A stretch of 64,000 nt of DNA from a virus. The position numbers and the translations under genes are program-made. Position 1 is the stretch's first letter. Every line of letters starts with the position of its first letter. The notes beneath the pieces were generated by a model, which had not been told where the DNA came from, did not search any database, and was given only the letters and a program-made list of their open reading frames with translations. Below are positions 24,657 through 48,808 of the stretch, piece after piece. The stretch covers positions 2,242-66,241 of the IMG/VR virus record IMGVR_UViG_2551306471_000001, one strand, 5' to 3'.

Positions 24657-24693
24657 AGGCTGCCCGGCGCCGCGTGTCCCGTTCCAGTCCACG
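24657..24693 (-). promoter_or_regulatory. Putative late promoter; leaderless start predicted
   Basis: CGTG-N13-CACGC dyad, GGGACAC, 11 nt, CAGCCT, 7 nt, ATG. Confidence 0.75.
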
Positions 24694-24707
24694 GGCGCCG
24701 GCGCGCC

Positions 24708-25097
24708 CTAGAACGACGTCGCCCAGTTCGAGCCGGGGAACACCCCCGAGAAGGCGTCGGTCGCCGTGCCCTTCGACGGGTTCGACGCGTCGACGAGGGT
24801 GGGGTCGGCGCGCCAGCCGACGACCTGGGCCGAGACGATGACCGTGGTCACGCGCGTGCCGTCGGCCTGGTCCCGGACGTCGGCGAAGATCGGGCTGGGC
24901 GCGTAGCTGACGTAGGCGAACGAGGCGAGCGCCGAGCCGACGTCGACCGCCGCCTCGTAGCCGGGGGTCGTCCCGTCGAGGGGCGCCGCCCCGCTGCGCG
25001 CGGCCAGCATCGCCTGCTCGCGCTGCTTGGCCTCGATGAGTTGGTTGACCGCCCGGGCGAACTCGTTGGGGGTCACCGTGATGCCGTTGTCAGCCAT
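24708..25097 (-). CDS. Tail tip-associated hypothetical protein
   Basis: Position between hub and fibre genes. Confidence 0.6.
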   Translation of the reverse strand: MADNGITVTPNEFARAVNQLIEAKQREQAMLAARSGAAPLDGTTPGYEAAVDVGSALASFAYVSYAPSPIFADVRDQADGTRVTTVIVSAQVVGWRADPTLVDASNPSKGTATDAFSGVFPGSNWATSF

Positions 25098-25100
25098 GGC

Positions 25101-27596
25101 TCAGAATCCCGCTGCCTGGAGGTCGAGCCCCTTCGGGCTCTTCGTGAGTTGGGCGTGGACGCGGCCCGAGCGCTGCAGGACGCCGGTCTGGAACATTGGC
25201 CGCATGGCGATGTCGAGCGTCGTCGGCATGTCCCGCGGGACGCCGCGGGGGTCCCGCCCGGCGACCATCCGGGCGAAGAACTCGCCGATCTGGAGGCCGA
25301 CCGAGTTCCGCACGAAGCACTCCAGGCACGAGTAGAAGGGGTCCGACAGCCGGTAGGCGTCGATGGGCAGGACGAGCGGGTCCAGCGTCAGGGCCCACTC
25401 GACGTCGTCGCCGGTCGAGTAGATCCCGCTCGTGTCCGAGACGACCGACGGCGCCAGGTAGGCCGGCGTGTTCACCTTCGTGTACGTCGGGTCGACGTAG
25501 CCGGCCTGGACGTACTGGCTCGCGGCGTGCGCCGGCGCGACGTCGTCCCGGCCGGTGCCGAGGCACGGCTGGATGGTCACCTTCACCTTCGCCGGCTCGT
25601 TGCCGCCGAGCATGCGCTCGACCGCCGTCACCTTGCCCTGGACCACCTTGCGGACGTCGCCGTCGCGGATGGTCATCGTGACCTCGTCGCGCAGGTCGAC
25701 GTCCCGGGCGACGGACCACGGGTAGACCTTGGACAGGGTCGGGGCCTGGAGCCGGGCGTACGCCACCCGGCGCATGCGCATCAGGGCGTGGCTGAGGGCG
25801 CCGCGGCCGCGCGCGGTGTCGAAGAAGGTCGGGCTCCGGTAGTCGCGCAGCGGCGCGAGCGTGCCGAGGTCGAGCCAGTCGACTGGGTCCTGGTTGAGCC
25901 GCATGCGGCCGCCGCTCAGGACGGTCCACGTGACGCGCCAGAAGAACTGCGTCCCGTCCCTCAGGCACTCGTAGACCCGGCCGCCGACGATGACGCGGTC
26001 CCCCTTGTGGTAGACGGTGCCCGGCTGGAACGGGTCGGCGCCGGGCACGCCCAGCAGGTCGCCCAGGGTGAACGTCCCGAGGTCGACCTCTTCGGTGCCG
26101 AGCAGGGTGTCCTGCACGTCGACGTCGAGGATCAGGTCGACGACCTCGCGGCGCTGCTGCGAGTAATCGTAGGTCACCCAGAACGCGTTGTACTGCGTGC
26201 GGAAGACGTTCACCGCGCAATACTCGGAATGGACAACGGTGAAGGGCTGGCCCTGTTGCTGGTAGGGCTGCCTGACCTCGCCCGTCAGCGGGTCCTTCGA
26301 GACCGGGTAGAGGGTGTCGTACCGGTACTCGACCGCGATGGTGCGCCCGGTCGGCATCTGGGGCGTGCGCGAGAGCGACGCCCGGACGCTGGTCTTGCCC
26401 CGGCTGAACCCGTTCCACATCCTGAATTCGAGCTTGGGGTCGCCCTGCGGCTCGGCCACTTTCTCGGCCATGGACTGGACCGCGGGCGAGCCGCCGGCCT
26501 GGACGGCGGCCGTCGCGATGACCGGAGCCAGGTCGACGCCGCCGACGGCGCGCTGGGTCCAGTCCGCGACGACCCGGGCCCGGATGCGCCTGGCCGGGGT
26601 CTCGTCGAACGTGATCTCGAACGAGGTCTCGTCGCCGCCGCCCCCGAGGTCGACGACGCGCCGGCCGACGATGGTGTCCTCCAGGGTGATGGCGTGCGTG
26701 ACGGGGTCGGTGTGCCAGAAGCTGCGCCGGCCGACGATGGCCGCGGTCGACGGGTCGTTCGGGTCGTAGCCGAAGGTCGCGTCCCACCACGGCAGCGCGG
26801 CCGCCGTCGGGTCCCCGGCAGGCGCCGGCGACACGCCCGAGATGACGAGGTCCGGGTCGGCGAGGTTGACCTCGACGTCCACCGAGCCGTTCAGCCCGGG
26901 GCTCGCGGACATGACCTTGCCCTGCGTGAACTCGACCGCGTGGGAGGGGTCCTTGTCCCCCGACACCCCGATGTGGGCGAACAGCTTCTTCTGGGCCGCC
27001 AGGTAGGCCTGGGCGGCGTGGGCGGCGGGGATGGTGAGCACGAGGCGGGCGTTGGCGACCGTCAGCACCCGCCACGAGATCTTCGCGTAGGGCGTGCGGA
27101 CGAGGTCCTGCTGGATGACGCCGGCGACCGGGACGGCCCGGGTCCGGAGCACGCTCCAGGCAGCGCCCGCGGCCCCGGAGAACGCGACGGCGATGGAGCC
27201 GACGCCCGGCGCCGGGATCACCTTCACCGTCAGGCCCGGGATGGCCGCGCCGCTGGTCGCCTCCTGCGCCGCGTTGCGGAGGTCCTGCTTGTGGCTCGCC
27301 GGCGCGAAGGTGAGGCCGATGGTGGCGTGCTGGCCCTGGAACTTGGGCAGCTTGCCGACGCGGGCGCGCCCGAGGAACGCCGCGTCCTCCAGGCGGCCGG
27401 TCGGCGTCTCCAGCAGCGCGAGGTAGCTCGACTGCTGCAGGATCTTGAGGCCCGGAGACTTCACCTCGATGGTGCCGGTGGCGGGCGTGCCCCGCTTCAG
27501 GGACTGCCTCAGCTTGAGGATGCCCCCGGCGTCCCGGAGCATGTCCTGCGTGACGGGCTGCTGCAGGTCGTTGAGGAAGACGGCGTAGGCGGGCAT
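25101..27596 (-). CDS. Tail tip hub/Tal-like protein
   Basis: 831 aa after the Dit-like gene; internal PFQPGTVYHKGDRV...YEC CBM5/12-like motif. Confidence 0.7.
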   Translation of the reverse strand: MPAYAVFLNDLQQPVTQDMLRDAGGILKLRQSLKRGTPATGTIEVKSPGLKILQQSSYLALLETPTGRLEDAAFLGRARVGKLPKFQGQHATIGLTFAPASHKQDLRNAAQEATSGAAIPGLTVKVIPAPGVGSIAVAFSGAAGAAWSVLRTRAVPVAGVIQQDLVRTPYAKISWRVLTVANARLVLTIPAAHAAQAYLAAQKKLFAHIGVSGDKDPSHAVEFTQGKVMSASPGLNGSVDVEVNLADPDLVISGVSPAPAGDPTAAALPWWDATFGYDPNDPSTAAIVGRRSFWHTDPVTHAITLEDTIVGRRVVDLGGGGDETSFEITFDETPARRIRARVVADWTQRAVGGVDLAPVIATAAVQAGGSPAVQSMAEKVAEPQGDPKLEFRMWNGFSRGKTSVRASLSRTPQMPTGRTIAVEYRYDTLYPVSKDPLTGEVRQPYQQQGQPFTVVHSEYCAVNVFRTQYNAFWVTYDYSQQRREVVDLILDVDVQDTLLGTEEVDLGTFTLGDLLGVPGADPFQPGTVYHKGDRVIVGGRVYECLRDGTQFFWRVTWTVLSGGRMRLNQDPVDWLDLGTLAPLRDYRSPTFFDTARGRGALSHALMRMRRVAYARLQAPTLSKVYPWSVARDVDLRDEVTMTIRDGDVRKVVQGKVTAVERMLGGNEPAKVKVTIQPCLGTGRDDVAPAHAASQYVQAGYVDPTYTKVNTPAYLAPSVVSDTSGIYSTGDDVEWALTLDPLVLPIDAYRLSDPFYSCLECFVRNSVGLQIGEFFARMVAGRDPRGVPRDMPTTLDIAMRPMFQTGVLQRSGRVHAQLTKSPKGLDLQAAGF

Positions 27597-27597
27597 G

Positions 27598-28134
27598 TCA
27601 GGCCTCCTCGAAGCTCATGGTCCAGTCGAGGCGCCCCTCGATCTCGGGCATCGACAGGGCCCGGCTCGCGAGCACCGCGTCGAGCTCCATTCGCCAGGTC
27701 ACGGAGACCGGCGCGTTCCGGGGCGCGTCGATGGTCACCGCTTGCCCGTCCACCGACACGGGGATGAGGTACTCCTCCTCGTCAAAGGCCAGGCGCGCCC
27801 GGACGCTGCCCGGGACGATGCGGCGATTGACGATGACGGTGGTCTGCCCGGGCAGGATGACGTCGGTCTGGGGCGTGATGCACTGGATGGTGACCGGGTC
27901 GCCCCGGCGGATGCGGGCGAAGGCCGGGGCCCAGCGCACCGCCGGGCCTGACGCCGCGAGCGACACACGCCACTTCGGATTCCAGAGAGGACGGAACACG
28001 ACGACCCCGCCGTTGAGGTCGCGGGCGAGCTCGGTCGGGTCGATCTCCTCCAGCTTCTCGGTGAGCCCGACGAAGGACCCGAACGGCAGCAGGATGGTGG
28101 AGGCCTTGAAGCGGGTGTCCCACATGGCGCTCAT
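27598..28134 (-). CDS. Distal tail (Dit)-like protein
   Basis: ATGA overlap with tape measure stop; beta-rich 178 aa. Confidence 0.65.
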   Translation of the reverse strand: MSAMWDTRFKASTILLPFGSFVGLTEKLEEIDPTELARDLNGGVVVFRPLWNPKWRVSLAASGPAVRWAPAFARIRRGDPVTIQCITPQTDVILPGQTTVIVNRRIVPGSVRARLAFDEEEYLIPVSVDGQAVTIDAPRNAPVSVTWRMELDAVLASRALSMPEIEGRLDWTMSFEEA

Positions 28135-31100
28135 CCGAAGGCGGGGTTGCCGTCCAGCGCCGCGAGCTGGCTGAGGAGCCCGCCGCGCTGCTGGTCGTCC
28201 TGGGTCGCCTTGAACGAGAGCGGCCCGATGTTGACGTTGAGGGGGTTCGCCGCCGGCGCGCTGCCGGACGGCTCGCGGACGATGGGCGCGGCGGTGAACG
28301 CCTTGGCGGCGTCGCGGTAGCCGGCTTCCTCGACCTCTCGGGCCCACCTCGACATCGCGTCGGGGTTCGCCTGCTGCGAGCTCGGCGCGTACCCGCCCTG
28401 ACGGCGGAGCTGGTCGAGGTACCGGCTGTGGGCGTACCGGGCCTGCCCCTCGGGCGTGGCCATCGTCGCCTTGATCTCGGCCTCGCGCGCGATCTGATCC
28501 CAGCCCACCTCGGTCATGACCGAGGTGTCCCGCGGCTTGAACGCCGGGGCCGCCTGCGACGCGGACGAGGGGTCGGGCTCGCCCGGGTAGCGGGAGCGGT
28601 ACCCGGCATAGGCGCCGTAGGCCGCGCCCGCGGCCCCGCCGATGAGCGTGCCGCCGGGGCCGAACATGGACCCGATGCCGGCGCCGGCCGCGCCGTACGT
28701 CAGCGCCCCGCCGGCAATCGACATGCCGTCGCCGAGTGCGCCCTCCGGGGCGAAGTGGCTGAGCGCCATGCCGGCCGCGCCGAGGCCGAGGAGGCGCATG
28801 CCGGTGAGCGCGCCGGCGGCGCCCTTCACGGCGTCCCTGAATCGGTCCCACTTGCCGGCGGCACCGCCCGCCGCGTCGCCCGCTCGGCCGGCCAGGACGC
28901 CGAAGTTCGACAACGCGCCCGCGAGCCCGCCGGCTGCGACGGCGCCCGCACCGGCCGCGCCGACTGCACCGGCCGCGGCCCCCGCGGCGCCGGCCCCGCC
29001 GACGGCGGCCGCGACGCCGCCGATGCTGCCCCGGAGCAGGCCCATGCCGAGCGCGACGCCCTGCAGCATCCAGCCGAACGTGCGGGCCACCCCTAGGAGC
29101 GTGCCCATGGTCGCGACCAGGATCAGCGTCTCAAGGTTCAGGTTGCCGAGCGTGACGTGCTTCACGACGCTGTCGAGCGTCTGGAAGATGCTCTTGAAGA
29201 TCTCCCACGCAGCCGAGAAGTCCTTCGCCAGGTCGCGCACCTGCCCGGCGACGGTCTTGATCCAGGCGAAGTTGTACTGGTCGTTCGGGCCGGTCTTGCC
29301 CTCCCACACCTTCTGCAGGTCGGACCAGACCTTCTTCACCTCGCCCACGAACGACCAGAAGACGGCCTTGCCCTTCTCAAACTTGTCGAGCACCCAAGCG
29401 AACCAGCGCCCGAGGCCGGTCTCGCCCTGGCCGCCGTTCCAAACCTCGCCGAGCTCGCGCCACCGGGCGCGCACGTAGTCGACGAAATCGACCACGGCCT
29501 GCCGGGCCGCGAACATCCAGGGGAACCGGACGTCGGCCGGCGCGTCGCCGCCGGACAGCGCGGCCCACGCCTCGCGCCCGAACTCGCGCACCCAGCCGAT
29601 GGCATCCGAGATGGCCTGCCGGATGCGCAGGATGACCGGGAACTCCTGGACCCGGTCGTCCTGCCCGGTGATGGCGAACCAGGCCTCGCGCGCGGCCCGT
29701 CCGGCGGTGAGCAGGCCGTCGCGCAGGGTGAGCAGCCACGTGAACCGGGTGACGTCGGCGTCGCGCCCGGAGACCGTCGCCCACAGGTCGCGCCAGAACG
29801 GCATCGTCGCCTTGGCCGCGGCCTCGGCGTAGAACAGCACCGACACCAGGTCGACGACGCCCTGCCGCGCCTCGATCCACACCTGCTTGTTCGGGGAGGC
29901 CTGCTGGGCCCGGATGCCCTCGTAGGCGCGCACCGCCTCGGCGCCGAGGTCGCGCATGGCGAGCGCGAACGTGCGGGCCTGGTAGGTGCCCTCGACCAGC
30001 ACCCGGAACCAGAGGTGCTTCTGGTAGAACGCCGCCGAGATCCGGCCGGCCGCGTTGAGCCCCTCGGTCGCGACGTAGTACAGGACCTGCCCGACGCTGT
30101 ACGCGTCCTTCATGAAGGCGGCGACCTTCTGGCGGTTGTCGGCGATGGTCCAGGCCAGGGTCTCCAGGCCGCGGATCACCTCGTTGCCGACGGCCCGGCT
30201 GATGGTCTGCTTCAAGCCGGCCCAGGCGTCGGACAGGTCCGCGGTCGCGGCCCGGTAGGCCCGCATCCGCAGGATGTCCTCCGGCCCGATGATGGTGCCG
30301 AAGCGGGCCTGCCGCTGCCAGCCGGCCGCGACCACCCCGTCGTTGGGGTTCATCATCGACCGGACGAGGGGGTACAACTTCTCCCAGTTCTCGTAGGACC
30401 CGAACACCCGCGTCAGGATGTTGACCTGGTCCTGCATGCCGAGGCCGCGCAGCCGGGGCATGATCTGGTTGAGGATGGTCGAGGTGTCGTACAGGCGGCC
30501 GTAGACGTCGGTCGTGCGCACGCCGATCTGCGTCAGCCAGCTCGCGAGCTCGGGGTCGGCATTGAGGTTGCGCAGGGTCGTCTGCGCCGCCTGCAGGCCG
30601 GTCTCGAAATCCTTCATCGCGACGCCGGAGGTCTTCGCGGCGCCGGCCAGGGCCTGGTAGCCCTGCATGTTGATGCGCTGGTCGATGCTCTTCTCGAACA
30701 CCGTCCCGGCCCGCTCGGCCGTGTCGCCGGTGGCCCGCTGGGCGAAGCGCACGCCGGCGATGCCCGCGGCGGTGCCGGCGAGCACGCCCTTCAGGGCGAG
30801 GTCCTTGCCGATGGAGGCGACCTTGGCGGCGGCGCCGACGGCGGCCGAGCCGAGACGCTCCAGCAGCGAGACCGCGCCGGAGCCGAGCTCGTAGGCGAGG
30901 TGCCCGGCCGCGGTGACCGCGTGCCCGCCGATGGACAGCAGGCCCGCGCCGACGGAGCCGACGAGGCCGAGCGTCCCGGTGAGGGCGCGCCCCGCCGCCG
31001 AGGTGACGCCGAAGGCGGTCGAGACCACCCGCGCCCCGAGCCCCCACGCCGTCGGCAGGAATCCCCGGGTGGTCAGGCTGGACCACAGGCTGCCCGCGGG

Positions 31101-33485
31101 GTTCATCAGCCCGAGGCGTGGCAGGTTCCGGCGCACCCGGCCGATGGTGTCGGCGGCGTCCTTCCAGGCCTTGGCGGCGCGCTTGGCCGCCTGCTCCTCG
31201 GCCCGCGCGGAGGCCTCCGCCGCCCGGCGGATGAACGCCTCGGCCCGGACCGCGGCGGCCCGCTTCGCCTGCGCGGTGGCGCCGGCCTTACGGGCGGTCT
31301 CCTCCAGGAGCGCGATCTTCTCGGCCTCGAAGTGGGCGAGCACCGCGAGCTCGGCGTCGGACTGCCCGGCCGCCTTCGCGGCCGCCAGCTTCCGCCGGCT
31401 CTCGGCCTGGCCGGCGAGCATGGCGTCGATGGCCGCCTGCTCGGCGCGCCGGGCGGCGACCGCGTCGCGGATGGCGGCCTGCGCCGAGGCGGCGTCGAGC
31501 GGGCGGTTGCCGGCGGGCCCGGTCGGGACGCCGCGGCGACGGGGCTCGGGGCCGCGGCGCGCGCCGGCCGCGCCACCGCCCTGGGCACCGGCGGCGTTCC
31601 GCTGGGCGTCGCGCTCGGCGCGCTCCGCCTCGCGGGCAGCCTTGTCCGCCTCCTTGGCGGCCTTCTCGGCCTCCTTGGCAGCGGCGGCCACGCGCTTCGC
31701 CTCGGTGACGGCCGCGGCGGCGGTCTCGCGCGCGATTCGCACCCGTTCGGCGGCGGCTGCCTTCTCGGCCTGGACCGCGGCCGCGCTCGCCTGCAGCGTC
31801 GCGGCCAACTGCGTCTCGGCCGCGCTCACGGCAGCGGCGGCAGCCTCAGCGGCCGCCTTCAGCCGGTCCTTGTGGGCCTTCGCCTCGGCGGCCGCGGCCT
31901 TCTGCGCGGCGCGGACCTGGGCCGCGGCGGCGGCCTCGGCGGCCGTCGTCTCCTGCGCCAGGATGCGCTCGGCATCCTGCAGGGCGGCCTGCGCGGCGGC
32001 GAGCTTGGCCTCGCGAGCCGTCTTGCCGGCGTTGAGCTTGTCGGCCTCGGCCGCGCGGACGGCCTGGATCTCCGCCTCGATCTCGGCCCGGCGCGCCGCC
32101 TCCTGCGGGGCGCGGCCGGCCTCCACCGCCTCGGCGCGCGCGAGGCGGCGCTGCAGGCCGGGAGCCGCGGCGGTCTGGTTCGCAAGGTTGCCCGCGGACC
32201 GTTCGAGCCGCGTCTGCCCGTCGCGCAGCCGCTTGTACCGGTCCTTCTCCAGGCGGTCGAATTCCGCGTCCACGGCGTCCGGGCCTTGGCCCTCGTGAGA
32301 CCGCGTGGCACGACGGGCGAGGAGTGCGGTGGACTCCCTGTTCGCGCGCCGAACCTGCTTCCGGGCCTCGGCCTCGCCCACCCGGTTGAGCTCTATAACT
32401 CTGGTGTTTTCGGCGGCGTGCCGACGTGCCTTCTCCAGGGCATCGCGCCGGGCCTCGGCGCGGGCGTCGATCCGGGCGCGCTCGGCCAACAGCGCCGTCT
32501 CGCGCTCGGTGACCGGGCCGGCCTCGAACCGGGCCCGGGCAGCGGCGCGCGCGGCCTCGTCCCGCGCCGCACCGCGCTCGTCGATGTCGAAGGAGCGGTC
32601 GGCACGACGCTCCATGGCCCTGACGCCAGTCGCCCTCTTCTCGTACTCGCGAGCCTGCGCAATCAGCTCATTGAACCGCTTCGTCCGGGCCGTTGCCTCC
32701 TTCTCGGCCATCTCATCGACGTCGAAGTCGCTCATGCCCGGGTTCTGGGCACGGAACTCCTTGAAGAGGGCGTTCACCGAGGACTTGGCCCTGAGCTCTT
32801 CGGCCTGCCGCTTGAACGCGGCGGCCTGGGCGCGCAGGACCGGCTCGTTCTCGCGCGCCTCGATGGCGCGACGGCGCGCCCCGTCGGTCGCGGCCTTCCG
32901 GGCGGCGGCACGGCGGTCGATGGCGGCGAGCTCATCCCGCAGACCGGCCTCGCGTGCGGCCTCGCGGGCCGAGGCCTCCTCGCGCTCGGCCTTCTCGGAC
33001 TGCGCGGCGAGGCGGCGCTCCTCCTCGAACCGGGCACGGGCGGCGGCGGTGGCGGCGCGGGCGGCCTGCACGGCCTGGGACTGCGCGGCGCCGGGGACAC
33101 CCTGTCCGGCGGCGGTACGGGCCGACGCGGCGGACGGGGCGGTCTTGAGATCCCGCGCCGCCTTCTCGGCCTCGGCCTTGGCCTTGGCGACGGCCTCGCG
33201 GGCGGCCCGCTCGCGCTCCTGCGCCCGCAGGATGGTCTGGCCGAGGCTGTCCCGGGCCGAGCCCTCGGCCTGCGAGACGCTCTCGCGCATCCGGCGGTTG
33301 GCCGCGACGACGGCGTCGGCCGCACGGGAGGACGCCTGCCCGGCGGCGCTGAGGTCGCCCTCGGCCTGGCGAGCCTGGCGGCCGGCGGCCTCCAGCGCGC
33401 CGGCGGTCGCCCCGAAGGCGGCGCGCACCTGGTCGAGGCCGACGACCCCGAACCTGGTGACGATCTCCTCGACCTCGCGCCTCAT
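28131..33485 (-). CDS. Tape measure protein
   Basis: About 1780 aa, Ala-rich helical; W..G.D...F.W repeats; Gly/Ala hydrophobic C-terminal region; follows chaperone genes. Confidence 0.9.
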   Translation of the reverse strand: MRREVEEIVTRFGVVGLDQVRAAFGATAGALEAAGRQARQAEGDLSAAGQASSRAADAVVAANRRMRESVSQAEGSARDSLGQTILRAQERERAAREAVAKAKAEAEKAARDLKTAPSAASARTAAGQGVPGAAQSQAVQAARAATAAARARFEEERRLAAQSEKAEREEASAREAAREAGLRDELAAIDRRAAARKAATDGARRRAIEARENEPVLRAQAAAFKRQAEELRAKSSVNALFKEFRAQNPGMSDFDVDEMAEKEATARTKRFNELIAQAREYEKRATGVRAMERRADRSFDIDERGAARDEAARAAARARFEAGPVTERETALLAERARIDARAEARRDALEKARRHAAENTRVIELNRVGEAEARKQVRRANRESTALLARRATRSHEGQGPDAVDAEFDRLEKDRYKRLRDGQTRLERSAGNLANQTAAAPGLQRRLARAEAVEAGRAPQEAARRAEIEAEIQAVRAAEADKLNAGKTAREAKLAAAQAALQDAERILAQETTAAEAAAAAQVRAAQKAAAAEAKAHKDRLKAAAEAAAAAVSAAETQLAATLQASAAAVQAEKAAAAERVRIARETAAAAVTEAKRVAAAAKEAEKAAKEADKAAREAERAERDAQRNAAGAQGGGAAGARRGPEPRRRGVPTGPAGNRPLDAASAQAAIRDAVAARRAEQAAIDAMLAGQAESRRKLAAAKAAGQSDAELAVLAHFEAEKIALLEETARKAGATAQAKRAAAVRAEAFIRRAAEASARAEEQAAKRAAKAWKDAADTIGRVRRNLPRLGLMNPAGSLWSSLTTRGFLPTAWGLGARVVSTAFGVTSAAGRALTGTLGLVGSVGAGLLSIGGHAVTAAGHLAYELGSGAVSLLERLGSAAVGAAAKVASIGKDLALKGVLAGTAAGIAGVRFAQRATGDTAERAGTVFEKSIDQRINMQGYQALAGAAKTSGVAMKDFETGLQAAQTTLRNLNADPELASWLTQIGVRTTDVYGRLYDTSTILNQIMPRLRGLGMQDQVNILTRVFGSYENWEKLYPLVRSMMNPNDGVVAAGWQRQARFGTIIGPEDILRMRAYRAATADLSDAWAGLKQTISRAVGNEVIRGLETLAWTIADNRQKVAAFMKDAYSVGQVLYYVATEGLNAAGRISAAFYQKHLWFRVLVEGTYQARTFALAMRDLGAEAVRAYEGIRAQQASPNKQVWIEARQGVVDLVSVLFYAEAAAKATMPFWRDLWATVSGRDADVTRFTWLLTLRDGLLTAGRAAREAWFAITGQDDRVQEFPVILRIRQAISDAIGWVREFGREAWAALSGGDAPADVRFPWMFAARQAVVDFVDYVRARWRELGEVWNGGQGETGLGRWFAWVLDKFEKGKAVFWSFVGEVKKVWSDLQKVWEGKTGPNDQYNFAWIKTVAGQVRDLAKDFSAAWEIFKSIFQTLDSVVKHVTLGNLNLETLILVATMGTLLGVARTFGWMLQGVALGMGLLRGSIGGVAAAVGGAGAAGAAAGAVGAAGAGAVAAGGLAGALSNFGVLAGRAGDAAGGAAGKWDRFRDAVKGAAGALTGMRLLGLGAAGMALSHFAPEGALGDGMSIAGGALTYGAAGAGIGSMFGPGGTLIGGAAGAAYGAYAGYRSRYPGEPDPSSASQAAPAFKPRDTSVMTEVGWDQIAREAEIKATMATPEGQARYAHSRYLDQLRRQGGYAPSSQQANPDAMSRWAREVEEAGYRDAAKAFTAAPIVREPSGSAPAANPLNVNIGPLSFKATQDDQQRGGLLSQLAALDGNPAFG

Positions 33486-33504
33486 CGCCACCGGGGCGCC
33501 CTCC

Positions 33505-34334: not shown

Positions 34335-34382
34335 GGGGGGCGGGTTCCTGCGGCGGGACGGGCGGGGCCAGGGTGGGCCGGA

Positions 34383-35147: not shown

Positions 35148-35158
35148 GACGGCTCTCC

Positions 35159-35650: not shown

Positions 35651-35675
35651 GCGTGCGCCTTCCTCGACGCTCACG

Positions 35676-38365: not shown

Positions 38366-38374
38366 TGGGTGGCC

Positions 38375-39063: not shown

Positions 39064-39083
39064 GGGAGCCCCCGGTCAGCCTG

Positions 39084-39122
39084 GAAAGGAAAGGGGCCGG
39101 GTCGGTGTCCCGCCCGGCCCCC
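39084..39122 (-). terminator. Terminator after major capsid gene
   Basis: GGGGCCGGG/CCCGGCCCC stem followed by TTTCCTTTCC on the minus strand. Confidence 0.65.
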
Positions 39123-39149
39123 GAAAGGTCACGTCCCGGTGCCCGGGGC

Positions 39150-40178: not shown

Positions 40179-40216
40179 GGGAGCCCCCTTTTGTCTTTGC
40201 TTCTACTGTCCGCCGG

Positions 40217-40591
40217 TCAGCGGAGGATGATGCCGAGGAGCCTCAGCCCCGCGATGCACTCGGCCTTGTCGGCGGCGACCTGGGCCGCGTCCGCCCCGTC
40301 GGTCGGGTAGATCATGCGGCCGCCCTCGTCCGTGACCTCGCCCATGCGGGTCATGGCCGAGACCTTCTGGGTCGCGCCGGCGCCGAGGGCGGGGGTGCCG
40401 TGGCGCAGGATGCCGACGACGTCGTTGCGGTCGTCGCCGGTCGCCATGGGCGCGAACTTGCCGGCGACGAGCTTCACGACGAGGCCCGACCGGCGCTCCA
40501 CGGAGGCGTCCACGACGCCGTTGTCGTAGGAGTAGGTGCCGAAGTCGCGGACGATGAATTCGCCGTCGTGGGGCTTCTCGGTCGAGTACAT
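40217..40591 (-). CDS. Head decoration protein (gpD-like)
   Basis: 124 aa immediately upstream of the gpE-like gene; ends LRLLGIILR. Confidence 0.7.
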   Translation of the reverse strand: MYSTEKPHDGEFIVRDFGTYSYDNGVVDASVERRSGLVVKLVAGKFAPMATGDDRNDVVGILRHGTPALGAGATQKVSAMTRMGEVTDEGGRMIYPTDGADAAQVAADKAECIAGLRLLGIILR

Positions 40592-40652
40592 GGCGGCCTC
40601 CTAGGCTGCTGGTCCGGGGTGCCGTCGCCGGCGGATGGGTGGGGCCGTCGCC

Positions 40653-41867: not shown

Positions 41868-41891
41868 AGCCGCCTCTCCTGTGACGGTGAG

Positions 41892-41929
41892 AGGCTGCCG
41901 GGGGGCGCGTGTCCCGATCTAGTCCACGC
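41892..41929 (-). promoter_or_regulatory. Putative late promoter
   Basis: Same motif and spacing as 35676-35713. Confidence 0.8.
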
Positions 41930-42051
41930 CCCGCGGGGCGCGGCGCCGGGGGGGGGCGAGACACGGAGGCCGGCGTGCTCTAAACCCCGCGCCCTCGCGC
42001 CGGGCCAGGGTCCGCCCGTCGCGCAGGCGGACAGGGACCGGAGGTGAAGGC

Positions 42052-42270
42052 ATGGGCAAGCCGGGCGAGCAGATGGCGCGGATTGGCGCGGGGGTCCGCC
42101 AGCGGATGGAGCGGGTGCGCGACGAGGCGGCCGACACGCTGCAGGGGATGCTCGACGCGGGCATGGACCCGAACCACCCCGGCGCGCAGCACGTCGCGGC
42201 CGTGCGCGACCGCGCGGCCGCAGCGGTGGAGGAGCTCACCCCCAAGGCCGCGGACGGCGACGAGAACTAA
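42052..42270 (+). CDS. Small antisense moron protein
   Basis: GGAGGTG RBS; 72 aa amphipathic; opposite strand to the head operon. Confidence 0.65.
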   Translation: MGKPGEQMARIGAGVRQRMERVRDEAADTLQGMLDAGMDPNHPGAQHVAAVRDRAAAAVEELTPKAADGDEN

Positions 42271-42307
42271 GCCGCCGGGCGCCGAAAAAGCGGCGCTAGG
42301 GGGTTGT

Positions 42308-42367
42308 GCCTTGCCCTGTGCACACTTGTGCGCACCACGTCGGCATGCGGGAGCATCCCGTCATGCC
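42308..42367. repeat. 28-bp conserved motif plus hairpin, copy 2 of 3
   Basis: Identical core; lies just after the portal stop. Confidence 0.9.
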
Positions 42368-42375
42368 GGCGCGGG

Positions 42376-44040
42376 CTAGGCCTGCACCGCGGGCTCGAAC
42401 TCGTCGAGGGCCGCGTCCGCGACGAAGGCCCCGTCCACCAGGTCGCGCTCGGACTGCTCCTCGGCCATGACCTGGCTCCAGATGCTCTCCGAGACCGACG
42501 TCGCCGACGGGTTCCAGCGCGGAGCCTGCTGCGACCCGGCCGGGCCGCCGGTGGCCGGCGCCGTCGTGCCCGCACCGCCACCGGCGGCCGGGGGAGCGGC
42601 CCTGCCGGACGCGGCCGCCGGCGCCGCGGGGGCGCCTGGGGCGGCGAGCGGCTCGAAGCCGACGGCCTGGCGGCGGGCCTCCGCCTCCGCGAGGCCGCGG
42701 GTGACGACCTCGTGCCGGCGCCCGAACAGGTTCTGCGTGGCGTAGCCGGGATCCACGATGCCAGCCGCGATGCCCTGGGCGAAGGCGTTGATGTCGGTCG
42801 ACAGGTTGTTGAGCTGGATGATGGGCCAGTCCCAGTCGACCTGGTAGACCTCCCAGGCCGGGGTGTTGGCCGGGAGCTCGAACCGCCCCGACGCAAGGGC
42901 GTGGTCCACGAACTGGTGCCAGCAGGCGTTGACGCCCTGGTCCTCCAGGTCTTGGCGCTCGCATTCGATGGTGCGCTTGAAGTCCAGCCCCGCGAATCGC
43001 TCGGTGCGGTCCGAGAGCCCGTCGTGGTTCCCGGTCACCAGGTGCACCGGCACGCGCACGCTCGCGCAGATGGCGTAGAGGTGCCAGCGGATGCTCGCGA
43101 TGAGGTTCTGCGGGCTGTCCGGCGGGGCCTGGAGGTTGGCCTTGTAGCCGGCCGGCATCTCGAAGATCCCGCCGGGCTGCAACTGGATGGCGCTGATCAG
43201 GTCGTCGATGTCGTCGACCGACGGGAACAGGCTGTCGTCCGTGACGCCGTCCAGCGGCCGCTCGATGAACAGGCTGAGGAAGGTCGCGCTGATCTTCCGG
43301 CGGAGCTCGGCGTCCTCGTACGTCGCCAGCTTCAGGGCGCGGACGATGGCGGCCGCGATGGGCACCTCGCCCCGGGGCGACCCCGTCGGGCCCTTGAACA
43401 GGTGGGCGGCCCGCGAGACCGGCGTGAACTCGGGCGTCCAGTGCGTGGTCGGGTTCGCGTAGAGGTCGCGCGGATGGACCGGGTAGAACCAGTAGCCCTC
43501 GCGCTTGTCCGTGCGGCGGCCGTTCTTCATCCGGTACTGGATGCCGGCGACGGTGAAGCTCTCGCCGTCGTTCTCGGACCGGATGAGCTCGGGCGGGCAG
43601 TAGTCGGACGTCAGGGTCTGGATGCGCGTCGGCACCAGCAGTCCGTCGTCCTCGTCCTCGTCGAAGTCGAACTGGAGGAAGGTCTCGCCGTCGATGAACT
43701 TGTTCTTGCAGATGTCGTCGCGCCAGAGCTTGCCCCAGCCCGAGACCCCGCGGGCATCGAACTTGGCGGCGCTCGCCATGAACAGGTCGGCGAGGCGGTT
43801 GTGGCGCGACCGGGGGACCGGGCCGGTGCCGACGACGTAGGCCGTCCAGGTGTCGACCAGCGCACGCACCCAGGGGTCGTTGCGGTACAGGTGCCGCGCC
43901 AGCCACATCAGGCGCCGCTGGTAGACGACGGTGTCGATGGGCCCGATGTCGGGCACGAAGGGGATAAGGGCGGAGGTCGAGGCGGCCTGGTAGGCGGCCT
44001 CGACGGAGCGGCCGCGGCCGCCGTTGAGAAGGACGGCCAT
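42376..44040 (-). CDS. Portal protein, lambda family
   Basis: ARHLYRNDPW, DGETF, RGE.P and LKLATYEDAEL..KI.A motifs. Confidence 0.9.
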   Translation of the reverse strand: MAVLLNGGRGRSVEAAYQAASTSALIPFVPDIGPIDTVVYQRRLMWLARHLYRNDPWVRALVDTWTAYVVGTGPVPRSRHNRLADLFMASAAKFDARGVSGWGKLWRDDICKNKFIDGETFLQFDFDEDEDDGLLVPTRIQTLTSDYCPPELIRSENDGESFTVAGIQYRMKNGRRTDKREGYWFYPVHPRDLYANPTTHWTPEFTPVSRAAHLFKGPTGSPRGEVPIAAAIVRALKLATYEDAELRRKISATFLSLFIERPLDGVTDDSLFPSVDDIDDLISAIQLQPGGIFEMPAGYKANLQAPPDSPQNLIASIRWHLYAICASVRVPVHLVTGNHDGLSDRTERFAGLDFKRTIECERQDLEDQGVNACWHQFVDHALASGRFELPANTPAWEVYQVDWDWPIIQLNNLSTDINAFAQGIAAGIVDPGYATQNLFGRRHEVVTRGLAEAEARRQAVGFEPLAAPGAPAAPAAASGRAAPPAAGGGAGTTAPATGGPAGSQQAPRWNPSATSVSESIWSQVMAEEQSERDLVDGAFVADAALDEFEPAVQA

Positions 44041-44042
44041 GG

Positions 44043-44333
44043 TCAGAGCTCCCAGGGGCGGGTGCGGCGGTAGCCGAAGCCGTAGCCGCTGTTGGGGACG
44101 ATCTGGGTGTAGTTCCACCGGCGGCGCGCCGGCTTGCCCGCACGCCGGTCGAGCTCGTCGAGGACCTCCTCGCGGATGCGCTGCATGGAGCGCAGGCCGG
44201 TCACGGCGGCGGACGCGCCGAGGCCGTCGGAGGTCGACGCGAGGGCGCTGTCGATCTGCTCCGTAAGGTAGCGGACCTTCTCCCGGAGCTGCTCCTCCGA
44301 GTAGAAGTCGGGGCCGTAGGCGCGCGAGGGCAT
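44043..44333 (-). CDS. Head completion protein (gpW-like)
   Basis: 96 aa between TerL and portal. Confidence 0.65.
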   Translation of the reverse strand: MPSRAYGPDFYSEEQLREKVRYLTEQIDSALASTSDGLGASAAVTGLRSMQRIREEVLDELDRRAGKPARRRWNYTQIVPNSGYGFGYRRTRPWEL

Positions 44334-44338
44334 GGGGC

Positions 44339-46717
44339 TCACCAGTTCAGGAGGCTGTTCGACCGGCGCGCCCGGCGGGCGGCGCGGTCCGATGCGGTGG
44401 GGACGGCGGGGGCGACGGGAGCGGCAGGCGCGGGCGCGGGCGCCGGGGCCGCGGGCGCGGCCTGGGCGGCGAGCCTGGCCTCGAAGCGGTCGCCGGCATC
44501 CTCGACGCCTTTCGCCACCTCGGCGAGCATCCGCCGGGTCTCGACCGGCAGCCGCTCCCAGGTGTCCTGCGCCTGCGCCTTCGCCCGCTTCCGCTTCACA
44601 TCCCCGCCTCCCGGCGCCGCCGCCGCGCGCCGCACGCGCGACAGCCGCTGCTGGACCTCGGCGCCCGCCGAACGGTCCGGTCCATCGTGAGGCTCGTAGG
44701 GCGGGCGTGTCCCGATCAAGGCCACGTCGGCCGCGAGCTCGCGCCGGGCCTTGGCCGAGCCCGCCAGGTCGAGGCACATGGCGGCGTAGCAGTAGACCAT
44801 GAGGTCGAGGGCCTCGTTGGCGGCGTCGGCCTTCTCCTTGTCCCACCAGGTGCGCTTGTTCTCCTCGAACAGGCGCTCGGCGGTGACCTGCTGCCAGAAG
44901 TCGTCCTGCTCGCGCAGGGACAGGGGGGCGTGGATGCTCTCGGGCTCGCCGACGCGGATGCCCCACATCCGGTGGATGGTGTCCTTGATCGACTGAGTGC
45001 CCAAATTGATGAAGTCGAGGCCGTCCCGGCGGCTGCGGTTCACGCTCTTGGCGATGGCCGGCGCGCGGCTGCCGTGGGCCTCCTTCCGGCCCTTCACGGG
45101 CACGATCTTGGCCTTGCGGGATTCGGCGAGGTTGCAGGCCTGCAGGGCCCGGTTCAGGTCGTAGCCGATGTCGACCGCGACCCGGGACGGGGTCAGCGTC
45201 GTGCCGTCGGCCTTGCGCCACGCCGCGGTGGAGATCTCCAAGACCTGGCGCCAGGCGTCCGGGCTGAACGGCTCGACCTGCTCGCGGGTGACCGTGACCT
45301 CGCCGGTCTCGGGGTCGACGACCTCGACGTTGACGCCGTCGACGACGAACCGGCCCAGGATGAACACCTCCCGGCCGGGGCCGACGCCCCAGAACAGGCC
45401 CTCGTGCCGTGGCGGGTGGCCGGTCCGGAACGACCCACGTTGGCTGTCCCAAGCGCCGTAAATCCGGACAACCGCGTCCGGCACCGGCGCGGCGTATGGC
45501 TCGCACCTCTCGGCCAGCTTGTGCGGTTCGAGCACGCCGGTGCTGTCCGCGACGAATGCCTGAGCGAGCCACAGATTGGTCCACTCCTGGGCCTCGCTCG
45601 GGTTCGCCCGTTGCGAGAGGTACTTCTCGACGATCTTCGGCCAGCGGTGCGCAGGGTCCCGGCTGTGGATCGCCCACCAATAGAACCCGACGTGCCCCTT
45701 CACCGGGGCCTTCCGGGTGGGGACGTACCTCGCCTCCTCCATGGCCCGGTTGCGCTGGTCCTCGCGCATCCAGACCCCGCAGGCCGCGCACTGGTAGCCG
45801 ATCTCCGTGACCTCGCGGGTGACGGTGACCTTGCCGGTCTGCGGGTCGAGGTCCTCGACCGTCTCGCAGCGGAACTTCAGCCCGGCCCCGGGGATCTCGT
45901 CCCGGGTGCCGGCCTCCGAGACCTGCGGCAGGAACTCCTGGACCCTCCCGCAGCAGGGGAAGGGAACGCGCATGGTGCGCTTGTCGGTCTTCTCCCACTC
46001 CAAGACCACCACGCAGTCCGGGGTCGTGGGGGTGCCGCCGATCAGGATGTGCGGCTCGGCGTACTCCGCGAATCGGGTTTCAGCCTGCCCGACCTTCGTG
46101 CCCTCGGAGCCCTTGGCCCCCTTGAAGGCCGGGTCGCCAGCCTCGTCCATGCCGACGGAGGGGGCCTGGATGGCCTTGAAGTTGCTGTCCGTCTGGACGC
46201 CGCGCTGCTGCAGGGCGGCGCCGTTGATCAGGTAGATGTCGCTCCAGCTATCCTGGATGCCGGACCTGCTGTCGGGGCGCAGCAGGGCCCGCAGGTACGG
46301 GCTCGCCTCCAGCATGGGGCGGAGCTTCTTGTCGTGCCAGTTCTGCGCCTCGCCGTCCGAGCGCTCGTAGAAGATGGTGTTCTCGCCGTCGTAGGCGGCC
46401 TTCTTGCTGAACAGCGCCGAGGTGAACGTCGAGAAGCCGCCACGGGGCGGCTTGAGCGCGACGACGTGGGTGTTCTCCGGCTCGTCCAGGGCATCGGCGA
46501 CGGCCGCCTGGGTCACGTCCAGCTTCATCGGCCCCGGCCTGGAGCCGTTTGGGACCACGACGTGGCGCTCGATGAAGGCGCGGTTGCCCATCGGGGGATT
46601 CGGGACGAGGTTCCTCGCCGCCCGGCGCACGAGCGCCTTGAAGCCATCCAGGCCCGGACGGGTCAGCAGGTCGACGGCACCCAGCAGCCGGGGATCGAGC
46701 TCAGGCTGCGGCGTCAT
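44339..46717 (-). CDS. terL: Terminase large subunit, gpA family
   Basis: VALKPPRGGFST (gpA-type Walker A), GMDEAG, GTPT, PCC and NEALDL.VY motifs. Confidence 0.92.
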   Translation of the reverse strand: MTPQPELDPRLLGAVDLLTRPGLDGFKALVRRAARNLVPNPPMGNRAFIERHVVVPNGSRPGPMKLDVTQAAVADALDEPENTHVVALKPPRGGFSTFTSALFSKKAAYDGENTIFYERSDGEAQNWHDKKLRPMLEASPYLRALLRPDSRSGIQDSWSDIYLINGAALQQRGVQTDSNFKAIQAPSVGMDEAGDPAFKGAKGSEGTKVGQAETRFAEYAEPHILIGGTPTTPDCVVVLEWEKTDKRTMRVPFPCCGRVQEFLPQVSEAGTRDEIPGAGLKFRCETVEDLDPQTGKVTVTREVTEIGYQCAACGVWMREDQRNRAMEEARYVPTRKAPVKGHVGFYWWAIHSRDPAHRWPKIVEKYLSQRANPSEAQEWTNLWLAQAFVADSTGVLEPHKLAERCEPYAAPVPDAVVRIYGAWDSQRGSFRTGHPPRHEGLFWGVGPGREVFILGRFVVDGVNVEVVDPETGEVTVTREQVEPFSPDAWRQVLEISTAAWRKADGTTLTPSRVAVDIGYDLNRALQACNLAESRKAKIVPVKGRKEAHGSRAPAIAKSVNRSRRDGLDFINLGTQSIKDTIHRMWGIRVGEPESIHAPLSLREQDDFWQQVTAERLFEENKRTWWDKEKADAANEALDLMVYCYAAMCLDLAGSAKARRELAADVALIGTRPPYEPHDGPDRSAGAEVQQRLSRVRRAAAAPGGGDVKRKRAKAQAQDTWERLPVETRRMLAEVAKGVEDAGDRFEARLAAQAAPAAPAPAPAPAAPVAPAVPTASDRAARRARRSNSLLNW
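44690..44726 (-). promoter_or_regulatory. Putative late promoter embedded in terL coding sequence
   Basis: CGTGGCCTTGATCGGGACACGC, 11-nt spacer, GAGCCT. Confidence 0.65.
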
Positions 46718-47336
46718 CGTCCGGCTCGGCCTCCAGGGCCTTACCCACCGCGTCCTCCGCCCCCTTCAATGCCGCGCGGCACTGGTCGAGCGCCTTCCGG
46801 CGCCAGGCTTTCGTCAGGTCCTCCGGGAAGCCGCCCATCTCGCGGAAGATCACGTCCGGGATGGACATGACCGCCTGCCGCACCGCGTTGTTGGACCGCT
46901 CCAGGACGTCGGCGAGCCGGTCGAACATCACGAGCTCGCCGGCCTTCTCGGCGACCTTCATCAGGCTGAGCTGCGCGTCGAAGGCCTTCTTCGGCTCCCG
47001 GATGCCCATCCAACTGAAGCCGCCCTCGCCATCCAAGCCGGACGCGGCGGCCGCCTTCAAGGCCTCGGCCTTCGTCTGCTCGACGTGCCAGCGCCAGACC
47101 TTGCCGATGTCGAGCTCGTAGGGCTCGCCTGGGCCGCCCTCGCGCTCGACCGGGCACCCCTTGGCCCGCCAGGCATCGATGGTCCCCCGGTCCCAGCCGG
47201 TGAGCTTCGACAGGGCGTTGACCGACATCAGCCGGTCGGCCCGCTCGACCCGATCCACGGCCGCCTCGACCGCCTCGGAGACGTCCCGGCGAAGCAGGCG
47301 GCGGGGCTTGTGCCGGGGTCCGTAGGGGCCGCTCAC
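46701..47336 (-). CDS. terS: Terminase small subunit, Nu1-like
   Basis: MSVNALSKLTGWDRGTIDAWRAKGCP...YELDIGKVWRW wHTH; overlaps terL. Confidence 0.88.
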   Translation of the reverse strand: MSGPYGPRHKPRRLLRRDVSEAVEAAVDRVERADRLMSVNALSKLTGWDRGTIDAWRAKGCPVEREGGPGEPYELDIGKVWRWHVEQTKAEALKAAAASGLDGEGGFSWMGIREPKKAFDAQLSLMKVAEKAGELVMFDRLADVLERSNNAVRQAVMSIPDVIFREMGGFPEDLTKAWRRKALDQCRAALKGAEDAVGKALEAEPDDDAAA

Positions 47337-47542
47337 CGGGTCTGCCCCCGCGGACCGCGGGTGTCCGGCGCCCCGAGCCGGTTGTTCACGCCACGTTCTC
47401 CGGGCGCCCGTGCCGCGACGGGGGACCCCGCAACCGCCTCCGGGGATTTCCGTGCGGTTTCAGGGGCTTGCCGGGGGTGCTGTTGCTGGGTGCCCATCAA
47501 AATGATTCCACAAGTACCGAGCTATCGCGGCGCAAATGCTCC

Positions 47543-47564
47543 CCGCACGGCATTCCCCCCGTAA
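47543..47564 (-). other. Predicted cosN with 12-nt 5' cohesive end GGGGGAATGCCG
   Basis: TTACG-GGGGGAATGCCG-TGCGG parallels lambda TTACG-GGGCGGCGACCT-CGCGG; upstream of terS. Confidence 0.55.
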
Positions 47565-47683
47565 GGGGTCCCCATCGGGGGGGGTGGGGGGTGCCCCTAG
47601 GGGGGGCGCGACCCCCCCCCGGGGTGGGAGAGCCGCCCCCGCCCCCAGCGACGGCTCTCCCGCTCGGCGGACCGAGGCGACCC

Positions 47684-47721
47684 ACGCTGCCCGGCAGCGC
47701 GTGTCCCGATCCAGGCCACGC
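47684..47721 (-). promoter_or_regulatory. Putative late promoter for the terS operon
   Basis: Motif, 11-nt spacer, CAGCGT. Confidence 0.7.
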
Positions 47722-47808
47722 CCCGGGGCGGCGCCGGGCGGGCCCGGGGGCGGCGGGGGCACGCGAAAAAGTGCGGGGACCGCCGGATTTCCGGCGCGGG
47801 GGTGTTGT

Positions 47809-47882
47809 GCCTTGCCCTGTGCACACTTGTGCGCACACGAGATGCGCACGTCGGCACGCGGCGGCATGACGGGATGCCGCCG
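47809..47882. repeat. 28-bp conserved motif plus hairpin, copy 3 of 3
   Basis: Identical core; hairpin CGGCGGCAT/ATGCCGCCG. Confidence 0.9.
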
Positions 47883-47887
47883 GGCGG

Positions 47888-48763
47888 TCAGGCGGCCATG
47901 CGGGTCGGGGCGCGCTTGGCGGCGTGCGCCAGGTTGTCGGCCAACTGCTCCGCCATGATCTGCGGGATGCGCGCGGCCGCAGCCTGGCAGGCCTCCTCCC
48001 AGGGGCGCTCCAGGATGGGCTTGTAGGTCGCCCGGTCGACGGCGAGGAACAGGATGCGGGGGTGGTCGATGTCCCGCATCCGCCGCCCGACGTTGACCAC
48101 GCGCCCGCCCCGGCGGTTCGAGAAGATCTGCGCGGTCTCGCCGGTGTCGACGGCCACGCGCGGCGGCCGGGCGATGTAGGCGAGCCTGGGCTGGCCGTGC
48201 AGGTTGATCGTCCCCTTGTAGACGCCCCACCTCGACGCCGTGGACGCCCGCGCCTTGGCCTTGGTGCCCGCCGCCTCGCGCGACAGGCGTGCCAGGAAGC
48301 CCCTCGGCACGCCCCCGTACTGGGTCGGCTGGACGCCCTGCGTCAGGGTGATGTTCTGCCAGAACGGGATCAGGATCTTGTCCTGCGCCAGGCCGACGTC
48401 GCCCGGCAGGCGCGTGTTGTCCTGTACGCCGAACAGGTACTTCAAGTAGGTGCTCTGGCGCGGCATGACGTAGACGGCCGAGAACAGCCCATCCACGTTC
48501 GTGCCCGCCTCGATGGCGTTGAGACCCGCGGCCGAGGAGCGCTTGTACTTGATGGCCGACTGCGTCCAGGGCGTGTTCCGCTTCAGGTGCTTGTGGAACT
48601 GCGCGCGGATGCCGACGACGGCGTGCTTGGCCACCTCGTCGACCGCCCAGCCGGCGGCCCTCCGATACTTGGCCTCGCCGACGGTCGAGACGAAGCGGTC
48701 GCGCCAGGCGGCGATGGGGCCGGCGACGTCGGCGGCGATGCGGACACGGAAGGTCGTGCTCAT
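47888..48763 (-). CDS. Late-expressed phage protein, possibly gpZ-like tail completion
   Basis: TPWTQSAI.Y..S...YL.YL pattern; preceded by a late-promoter copy. Confidence 0.5.
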   Translation of the reverse strand: MSTTFRVRIAADVAGPIAAWRDRFVSTVGEAKYRRAAGWAVDEVAKHAVVGIRAQFHKHLKRNTPWTQSAIKYKRSSAAGLNAIEAGTNVDGLFSAVYVMPRQSTYLKYLFGVQDNTRLPGDVGLAQDKILIPFWQNITLTQGVQPTQYGGVPRGFLARLSREAAGTKAKARASTASRWGVYKGTINLHGQPRLAYIARPPRVAVDTGETAQIFSNRRGGRVVNVGRRMRDIDHPRILFLAVDRATYKPILERPWEEACQAAAARIPQIMAEQLADNLAHAAKRAPTRMAA

Positions 48764-48770
48764 GCCCGGC

Positions 48771-48808
48771 AGGGTGCGCCGCCGGGTGTGACCCGTTCCA
48801 GGCTACGC
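48771..48808 (-). promoter_or_regulatory. Putative late promoter; leaderless start predicted
   Basis: CGTAGCCTGGAACGGGTCACAC, 11-nt spacer after GGGTCAC, CACCCT, 7 nt, ATG. Confidence 0.65.

Follow-up and report, generated by a model that had tools for sequence, protein, structure and literature searches.

Why should one short sequence recur, always in the same orientation and with the same internal geometry, ahead of the successive blocks of virion genes in a prophage, and on one occasion within the coding sequence of the large terminase subunit, terL? The question is raised by IMG/VR record IMGVR_UViG_2551306471_000001, a 69-kb provirus of which we analysed 64,000 nt (positions 2,242 to 66,241; hereafter the window), with 72% G+C. 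The element is a lambda-like temperate prophage of Methylobacterium. To our knowledge, the control of late genes has been worked out in detail for only a handful of enterobacterial and Firmicutes phages, and we know of almost nothing on late control in the temperate phages of high-GC alphaproteobacteria. The answer that we favour, with a probability of about 0.65, is that the six sites are late promoters without a usable −35 element, in which a phage-specific sequence near −33 would be read by a factor encoded by the mobile element itself.

The six copies lie on the minus strand, at the places where a first-pass annotation of the window had put them, copies 1 and 4 ending at 24694 and 44727. 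In each, a 19-bp core with G/C on either side is separated by exactly 11 nt from the hexamer that follows it, a spacing that had been claimed as invariant and that is present in 6/6 copies; the whole module occupies 38 nt. What the annotation had written as CGTG-N13-CACGC is indeed an inverted repeat, although its arms are better described as the imperfect dyad GTGGMC-N7-GGMCAC, with the interior CTnGAWCGGG.

In keeping with the claim that the copies stand ahead of morphogenesis blocks, they front, in the direction of transcription, the gene for protein P0002, terS, a 99-aa gene with the portal gene, the protease gene, the tail block, and the last gene of the series. Copy 6 (48771-48808; core GTAGCCTGGAACGGGTCAC, hexamer CACCCT, 39.3 bits with the matrix described below) is followed after 7 nt by the ATG of P0002 at 48763. 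Copy 5 (47684-47721; core GTGGCCTGGATCGGGACAC, hexamer CAGCGT, 42.7 bits) is upstream of a cos-like leader and terS, and copy 4 (44690-44727; core GTGGCCTTGATCGGGACAC, hexamer GAGCCT, 36.4 bits), inside the C-terminal tail of terL, would serve the 99-aa gene and the portal. Copy 3 (41892-41929; core GTGGACTAGATCGGGACAC, hexamer CAGCCT, 37.5 bits) would serve the protease/scaffold, gpD and major capsid genes; copy 2 (35676-35713), with the same core, hexamer and score, heads the tail block and overlaps the stop codon of the upstream gene 35703-36281. Copy 1 (24657-24694; core GTGGACTGGAACGGGACAC, hexamer CAGCCT, 40.2 bits) occupies a 58-nt intergenic gap and is followed by the ATG, at 24649, of a 276-aa gene (23819-24649). 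The sequence also bears out the earlier observations that copies 2 and 3 have an identical stretch of 39 nt (41891-41929 = 35675-35713) and that the ATGs at 24649 and 48763 come exactly 7 nt past the hexamer.

The observation is real and highly non-random. With the core pattern of the annotation, five copies are exact matches, the sixth departs from it at 2 positions, and all are on one strand; 100 shuffles searched at 3 mismatches averaged 0.75 matches, and in none of them were 7 reached. A position matrix trained solely on 44 sites from other genomes, the window's own sites being excluded, scores the six sites at 36.4-42.7 bits and the next best place in the window at 13.0 bits, with a noise ceiling, the maximum over twenty Markov-simulated windows, of 10.6 bits. 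That next best place (14537-14574, plus strand, 40 nt upstream of the integrase gene) is a marginal, degenerate match, barely over noise, and we do not count it. The partial seventh copy that had been proposed at 23367-23384, on the minus strand, is not supported as a promoter, as it holds the right half of the core only (TGAACGGGACAC), lacks a hexamer that could be used and remains under 8 bits with the matrix; a degenerate site orthologous to it is present in Methylobacterium alsaeris. The matrix scan found no copy in the left element of the window, as had been stated. A literature search returned no description of the motif, which had been called undescribed, nor of late control in Methylobacterium phages.

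Conservation of the sites in Methylobacterium prophages

When an extended core of 22 nt was searched exactly in 185,579 species genomes, matches were found only in Methylobacterium, and in a viral contig collection no match was found except in the window's own record. Across the genus the motif is present in 59/144 genomes, as prophage-sized clusters or in integrase-bearing elements, and isolated hits, with one mismatch allowed, are no commoner than for a control pattern. Limited in this way to some genomes and to mobile-type contexts, the motif is not that of a core host regulon.

Scanned for the motif, as the annotation had advised, syntenic Methylobacterium prophages retain every copy, at the same module boundaries. 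The syntenic prophage of M. alsaeris has six minus-strand copies at near-equal spacings and a seventh on the plus strand, and copy 5 has orthologues there and in genomes G061 and G113. Over the six orthologous site pairs of the window and M. alsaeris, compared by ungapped identity with flanks of 60 nt, the core is 91% identical and the hexamer 89%, the spacer 50% and the flanks 45-50%, a pattern that reads as a clear phylogenetic footprint of core and hexamer. The related prophage of Leaf104 has seven sites, all with the right half GGCCAC; six share the identical core GTGGCCTTGCACGGGCCAC, which is a perfect 6+6 inverted repeat, and the seventh is a degenerate version of it. Another element in the Leaf104 genome carries the window-type motif, and thus differing variants coexist within one genome, each uniform inside its element.

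The copy within terL, which had been noted to keep its spacing inside coding sequence, begins at codon 665 of 792 with the spacing intact. In four phages the motif begins here in phase 0, in a C-terminal tail that is otherwise unalignable, and the tripeptide encoded is I-G-T in the window (ATC GGG ACA), N-G-T in M. alsaeris (AAC GGG ACA), H-G-P in Leaf104 (CAC GGG CCA) and N-G-S in G035 (AAC GGG TCA). The amino acids change, in other words, with the motif class of each phage, which indicates that at this place it is the DNA signal that is conserved and the protein that yields.

Relatives also carry an extra, outward-facing copy some 200 bp inside the attachment site, a tRNA (tRNA-Val, tRNA-Lys or tRNA-Pro), at L016:13540 in M. 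alsaeris, L025:9257 in G061, L027:6609 in G113, L034:7856 in G035 and L022:9086 in Leaf117. After it come a conserved leader, about 120 nt long, and direct repeats that resemble integrase arm sites, and the copy would read across attP once the genome circularises. No such right-end plus-strand copy is in the window's record, which ends before that point. Single copies at L021:9724 (M. dankookense) and L023:9372 (Leaf104 contig 1) adjoin an integrase-sized gene and point at an open reading frame (ORF) of 53-54 aa, after which comes a metallophosphoesterase of phage type, a homologue of window 16322-16891. Finally, compact elements in G084 (L036/L037), in G037 (L038/L039) and at G135:C90 hold a primase-like gene, P0002, a second protein, P0001, and three motif copies, with no terminase, portal or capsid genes seen; they are possibly satellites or remnants relying on the same promoters.

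The hexamer and the expected start

When 50 sites from 13 elements are profiled together, cGTGGCCTnGAACGGGnCACgc is rich in information and the 11-nt spacer has almost none, and within the hexamer the information is gathered in two positions, A2 with 2.1 bits and T6 with 2.3 bits, the other four having 0.1-0.4 bits. This is the signature nAnnnT, A2 at −11 and T6 at −7, of the −10 element of the sigma70 family (groups 1-3), whose factors flip precisely these two bases out of the −10 element. If the start is taken 7 nt past the hexamer for position numbering, the half-sites are found at about −42 to −37 and −29 to −24, with the centre near −33.

The interior of the motif (TTGAAC, TGGAAC, TAGATC or TTGCAC) has 3-4/6 matches to TTGACA, at a spacing of 18 nt, and a scan of 33-52 kb for consensus sigma70 promoters gave 0 sites. 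With so poor a −35 and no consensus promoter, the sites should be nearly silent alone.

The ATG of P0002 is 6-7 nt past the hexamer in 13/13 orthologues, down to about 40% protein identity, and the gene after copy 1 has the same ATG spacing in three orthologues, including those of M. alsaeris and Leaf104. At this distance the A of the ATG would be at or beside the expected start, and since copies 1 and 6 fill the space up to the ATG, no room is left for a Shine-Dalgarno site; the mRNAs of P0002 and of the 276-aa gene are on these grounds predicted to be leaderless. After copies 2 and 3 there are leaders of about 24 nt in which the Shine-Dalgarno sequence is good; that of copy 3 is 24 nt long, with the ribosome site GGAGAGG ahead of a TTG at 41867.

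Four runs labelled as RNA-Seq (X1-X4), followed over 33000-52900, give contigs of up to 115 kb with a uniform depth of about 330; the contigs break only at the 39-nt repeat, where the depth is double, and this looks like coverage at the level of DNA.

How the sites would be read

The reading as late promoters, already present in the first-pass annotation, is well supported by the comparative analysis, through the conserved sites, the A2/T6 hexamer, the constant distance to the ATG and the copy in terL. It would suppose the following: (i) a weak sigma70-type −10 (nAnnnT) would be accompanied by the 19-bp phage element, 11 bp upstream, which from about −42 to −24 would take the place of the −35, so built that the host RNA polymerase would be unable to use the sites alone; (ii) a factor encoded by the mobile element, probably a dimer, would bind the dyad and recruit or re-target the polymerase; (iii) and finally, the virion genes would be switched on together as six units, namely the gp10-like gene; cos, terS and terL; the 99-aa gene and the portal; protease, decoration protein and capsid; the tail block; and the last, 276-aa gene, the first and the sixth as predicted leaderless mRNAs that would start at or beside the A of the ATG. 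Promoter activity, start sites, dependence on an activator and a phage-encoded factor are what we infer here from sequence: the dependence, from the lack of a −35, the lineage-specific variants and the restriction to mobile elements; and a factor encoded by the element, from a motif that is not in the core host regulon and from element-uniform variants that coexist in one genome. Dependence on such a factor would be the most economical explanation.

Three points weigh against this account. Firstly, the scans with Pfam and PHROG found no Mor/C, Ogr, sigma-factor, RinA or Q-like domain in the scanned proteins; secondly, the −35-like interior (TTGAAC/TGGAAC, with an 18-nt spacer) leaves room for weak activity independent of any factor; and thirdly, in G035 the left half-site is fixed and the right half-site varies considerably, an asymmetry that a reader such as a sigma-like factor would fit as well as a dimer.

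This same constancy of the left half in G035 would suit an alternative sigma factor, phage-encoded or hijacked from the host (of the extracytoplasmic function (ECF) type or another), for which the left part GTGGCCTGGAAC would be an extended −35. GGAAC, the usual ECF −35 core, is found in many copies, and several hexamers end in CGT; however, in many other copies GATC or GCAC replaces GGAAC, and from GGAAC to CGT there are 21 nt, which exceeds the spacing of ECF promoter elements. The A2/T6 pattern, moreover, belongs to the sigma factors of groups 1-3, the perfect 6+6 inverted repeat of Leaf104 is what a dimer predicts, and no Sigma70_r2 or r4 domain rises over threshold in the scanned proteins, the only hint being an E value of 0.075 in an ORF of 102 aa. 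We thus consider an alternative sigma unlikely. The 102-aa ORF, which has a sigma-region-4-like helix and lies beyond the window, was also set aside as a candidate activator, its E value being non-significant and no homologue being found in other motif-bearing elements.

Less probable again is that the dyads are operators, like those of P1 C1 or the stoperators of mycobacteriophages, at which a phage repressor would silence self-sufficient late promoters in the lysogen. A dyad over −42 to −24 would certainly occlude the polymerase, the sites are dispersed and all oriented with transcription, and the interior does resemble TTGACA at 3-4 of 6 positions with 18-nt spacing; but the core elements would be too poor alone (A2/T6 only, and a −35 of 3-4/6 at a non-optimal spacing), an operator would have no need of the exact spacing to the hexamer that is conserved, and the early and immunity promoters, on which a repressor would be expected to act before any others, have no copy. 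That the repeats are recombination sequences at module boundaries, or an element of processing or antitermination in the RNA of one long late transcript, is very improbable, since, although the copies stand at module junctions, two of them share 39 identical nt that would permit exchange, and the dyad could fold as a short hairpin, neither role is served by the fixed 11-nt link to nAnnnT or by the 6-7 nt to start codons, the flanks are not conserved, which would leave exchange substrates of less than 40 nt, and the changes in the arms are uncompensated (A5 opposite G15 in the window; a right arm that varies against a constant left one in G035), so that no hairpin has been selected.

If we return to late promoters read by a factor of the mobile element, several known systems offer a likeness. 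The four late promoters of Mu (Plys, PI, PP, Pmom) show −10 hexamers and lack a −35, and their 16-bp dyad, to which the C dimer binds, has its centre at −43.5 (PMC2582627). As in Mu, the putative late promoters are dispersed here, with a recognisable −10, no typical −35 and an imperfect dyad over the −35 region, which in Mu is bound by the phage-encoded dimer (PMC2582627); class-B relatives, moreover, have a late promoter directly ahead of the lysis genes, as is the case of Plys. In contrast to Mu, the dyad is of 19 bp near −33 and not of 16 bp at −43.5, the sequences are unrelated, and there are six to seven promoters, two predicted to be leaderless and one inside a coding region. In geometry alone, the sites recall the middle promoters of T4, where the MotA box, centred at −30 and 12 ± 1 bp from a sigma70 −10, replaces the −35 (PMC2988021): the element here ends 11 bp from the hexamer, with its centre near −33. 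The MotA box, however, is of 9 bp, asymmetric and read by a monomer, whereas this is an inverted repeat of 19 bp; and MotA with AsiA acts, by sigma appropriation, on the middle genes of T4, whereas these are late genes of a temperate lambda-like phage. The scans found no homologue or family of MotA or AsiA.

The annotation had drawn its analogy with Ogr of P2 and delta of P4, which act on a TGT-N12-ACA dyad near −55 in a system that satellites can also use. The logic of the analogy holds, in that the late operons are distributed and a conserved dyad stands upstream of the −10 of each; the sequence and the position do not, as the dyad here is GTGGMC-N7-GGMCAC near −33, and the Pfam scans found no Ogr/Delta zinc-finger protein (Ogr_Delta). 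In lambda, the half-sites of CII straddle the −35 region of promoters without a good −35 (pRE, pI and paQ), much as in the present sites. The CII repeat, TTGCN6TTGC (PMC2629481), is, however, a direct one and controls lysogeny genes, whereas the repeat here is inverted and precedes virion genes; no CII homologue was found in the scanned proteins. As for Q and pR', the head genes are certainly lambda-like (Nu1, gpA, portal, gpD and gpE), but the lysis genes are on the plus strand and the virion genes on the minus strand, behind six separate promoters, which excludes a single late transcript of the lambda type, as the annotation had argued; no Q-like gene was found, and no promoter copy of the window is upstream of the lysis genes. 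The system belongs to none of the Mu, P2/P4, T4 middle or lambda CII groups; it differs from them in sequence, in where the dyad is centred and in the cognate proteins, of which none was found.

The search for the activator gave no Mor-family hit among the non-structural proteins of the window, although small divergent proteins could escape it and the record lacks the prophage's right end; iterated profile searches with all non-structural proteins found no further universally shared regulator. The sole proteins that accompany the motif in 15/15 elements are P0002 (47888-48763) and P0001 (51515-51883), which are linked throughout the genus, being divergent, adjacent or, in G037 (L039:8032-9477), fused as an ORF of 481 aa. 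Their structure models have a mean pLDDT of 71 and 78, respectively, and Foldseek gave no significant match in the PDB for either. P0002 was judged unlikely to be the activator, as it resembles an HK97-gp10 or minor-tail virion protein, to which its BFVD fold matches also point; and P0001 was judged likewise because it shows a ParE/RelE-toxin-like fold, albeit a weak one (Z about 4), and its relationships do not track motif class. The linkage of the two recalls phage head or neck proteins that bear toxin domains.

Two further candidates were discarded. The 665-aa protein between P0002 and P0001 is a RepB-primase/PriCT-type replication protein with a helix-turn-helix, not an RNA polymerase, and its type does not track motif class. 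The XRE-like pair (22869-23282 and 23452-23742) is found only in phages with this tail module and is absent from the motif-bearing G035.

A bolder proposal, which we hold tentatively and would not yet bet on, is that the 19-bp element is read by an activator of an undescribed family, or by a sigma-remodelling pair, unrelated to Mor/C, Ogr, Lpa, Q, RinA or MotA, and that this switch is common to many Methylobacterium prophages. If so, there would be specificity classes that co-evolve with their promoters, the compact elements without capsid genes may pirate the switch with the same promoters, and the outward copy beside attP would be productive only after the genome circularises. As no known activator family was found, the motif provides a direct handle, as pull-down bait or reporter, for a possibly new phage transcription factor, and it is in this prospect of a new activator family, together with an immediate use in annotation, that its interest chiefly resides. 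Sequence alone is enough to recognise the sharply defined 38-nt module in dozens of prophages of Methylobacterium, a plant-associated genus with biotechnological uses, and it is a ready means of annotating prophage boundaries, late operons and leaderless starts; a further use of the element in this genus could be as a promoter part that is tightly off and inducible.

Late-gene order and neighbouring sequences

A gene map drawn from third-position G+C (GC3), together with the Pfam and PHROG scans, places a lambda-like set of virion genes on the minus strand, in the order P0002 (291 aa), terS, terL, the 99-aa gene, portal, protease/scaffold, a gpD-like gene and a gpE-type capsid, followed downstream by a fibre-like cassette, the tail block with a tape measure of 1807 aa, and the final 276-aa gene. 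The right side of the plus strand has the primase-like gene (49244-51241), P0001 (122 aa), a holin, an endolysin, an Rz1-like gene and a Rha/KilAC gene (55901-56761), and the lysis and head genes are thus divergent. Small genes are found at 55324-55705, and further genes at a switch at 61.3-63.5 kb.

P0002, the first late gene (PHROG 1924, E 6e-11; also BFVD fold matches and Atlas features), is followed by a non-coding leader with runs of G and of C at 47337-47683, between copy 5 and terS; this leader of about 340 nt, read from the sequence, is by its position, where a lambda-like cos would sit, the probable cos region. The terminase genes cover 44339-47336 (terS, of the Nu1 type, 46701-47336; terL, of the gpA type, 44339-46717; Pfam Phage_Nu1, GpA_ATPase and GpA_nuclease, PHROG 15 and 57), and the 99-aa gene (44043-44342) and the lambda-type portal (42376-44118; Pfam Phage_portal_2 and the GC3 map) cover 42376-44342. 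The head module, at 39150-41867, has the protease/scaffold (40653-41867), the decoration protein (40217-40591) and the major capsid protein (39150-40178), identified with Pfam S78, HDPD and Phage_cap_E and with PHROG. The tail block, at 24708-35674, is defined by PHROG 807, the GC3 map and synteny with M. alsaeris and Leaf104, and includes a major-tail-like gene (34383-35147), the tape measure (28131-33554) and a distal tail protein of 831 aa (25101-27596); the final gene, downstream of copy 1, is also on the minus strand.

Some other sequences of the prophage may be mentioned. Its right arm carries a restriction-modification pair, formed by an Eco29kI-type endonuclease and a C5 cytosine methyltransferase, at 63502-64000 and continuing into L044:743-2547. 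Exact matches to GAAC-N7-GAAC, of the alphaproteobacterial LexA-box type, are found at 14476-14490, upstream of the integrase; at 23329-23343, upstream of the XRE-like gene 22869-23282; and at 47384-47398, within the leader that resembles cos; with 1.15 matches expected, the count of three is not significant.

Between copy 6 and the primase-like gene, at 49081-49099, there is a palindrome, GTGGCCAGGTGCATGCCAC, which has the half-sites of the motif with their 7-nt gap, without the conserved interior or the hexamer, and which may be a binding site without promoter function. A second family of repeats, at 21736-21791, 42280-42335 and 47781-47836, is composed of a G+C hairpin and a conserved block of 33 nt that contains the palindromes TGTGCACA and GTGCGCAC. 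Every copy of this family is downstream of a stop codon on the gene strand, and two of them lie upstream of promoter copies 5 and 3, at a distance of 60-350 nt, as though they ended one late unit ahead of the next promoter.

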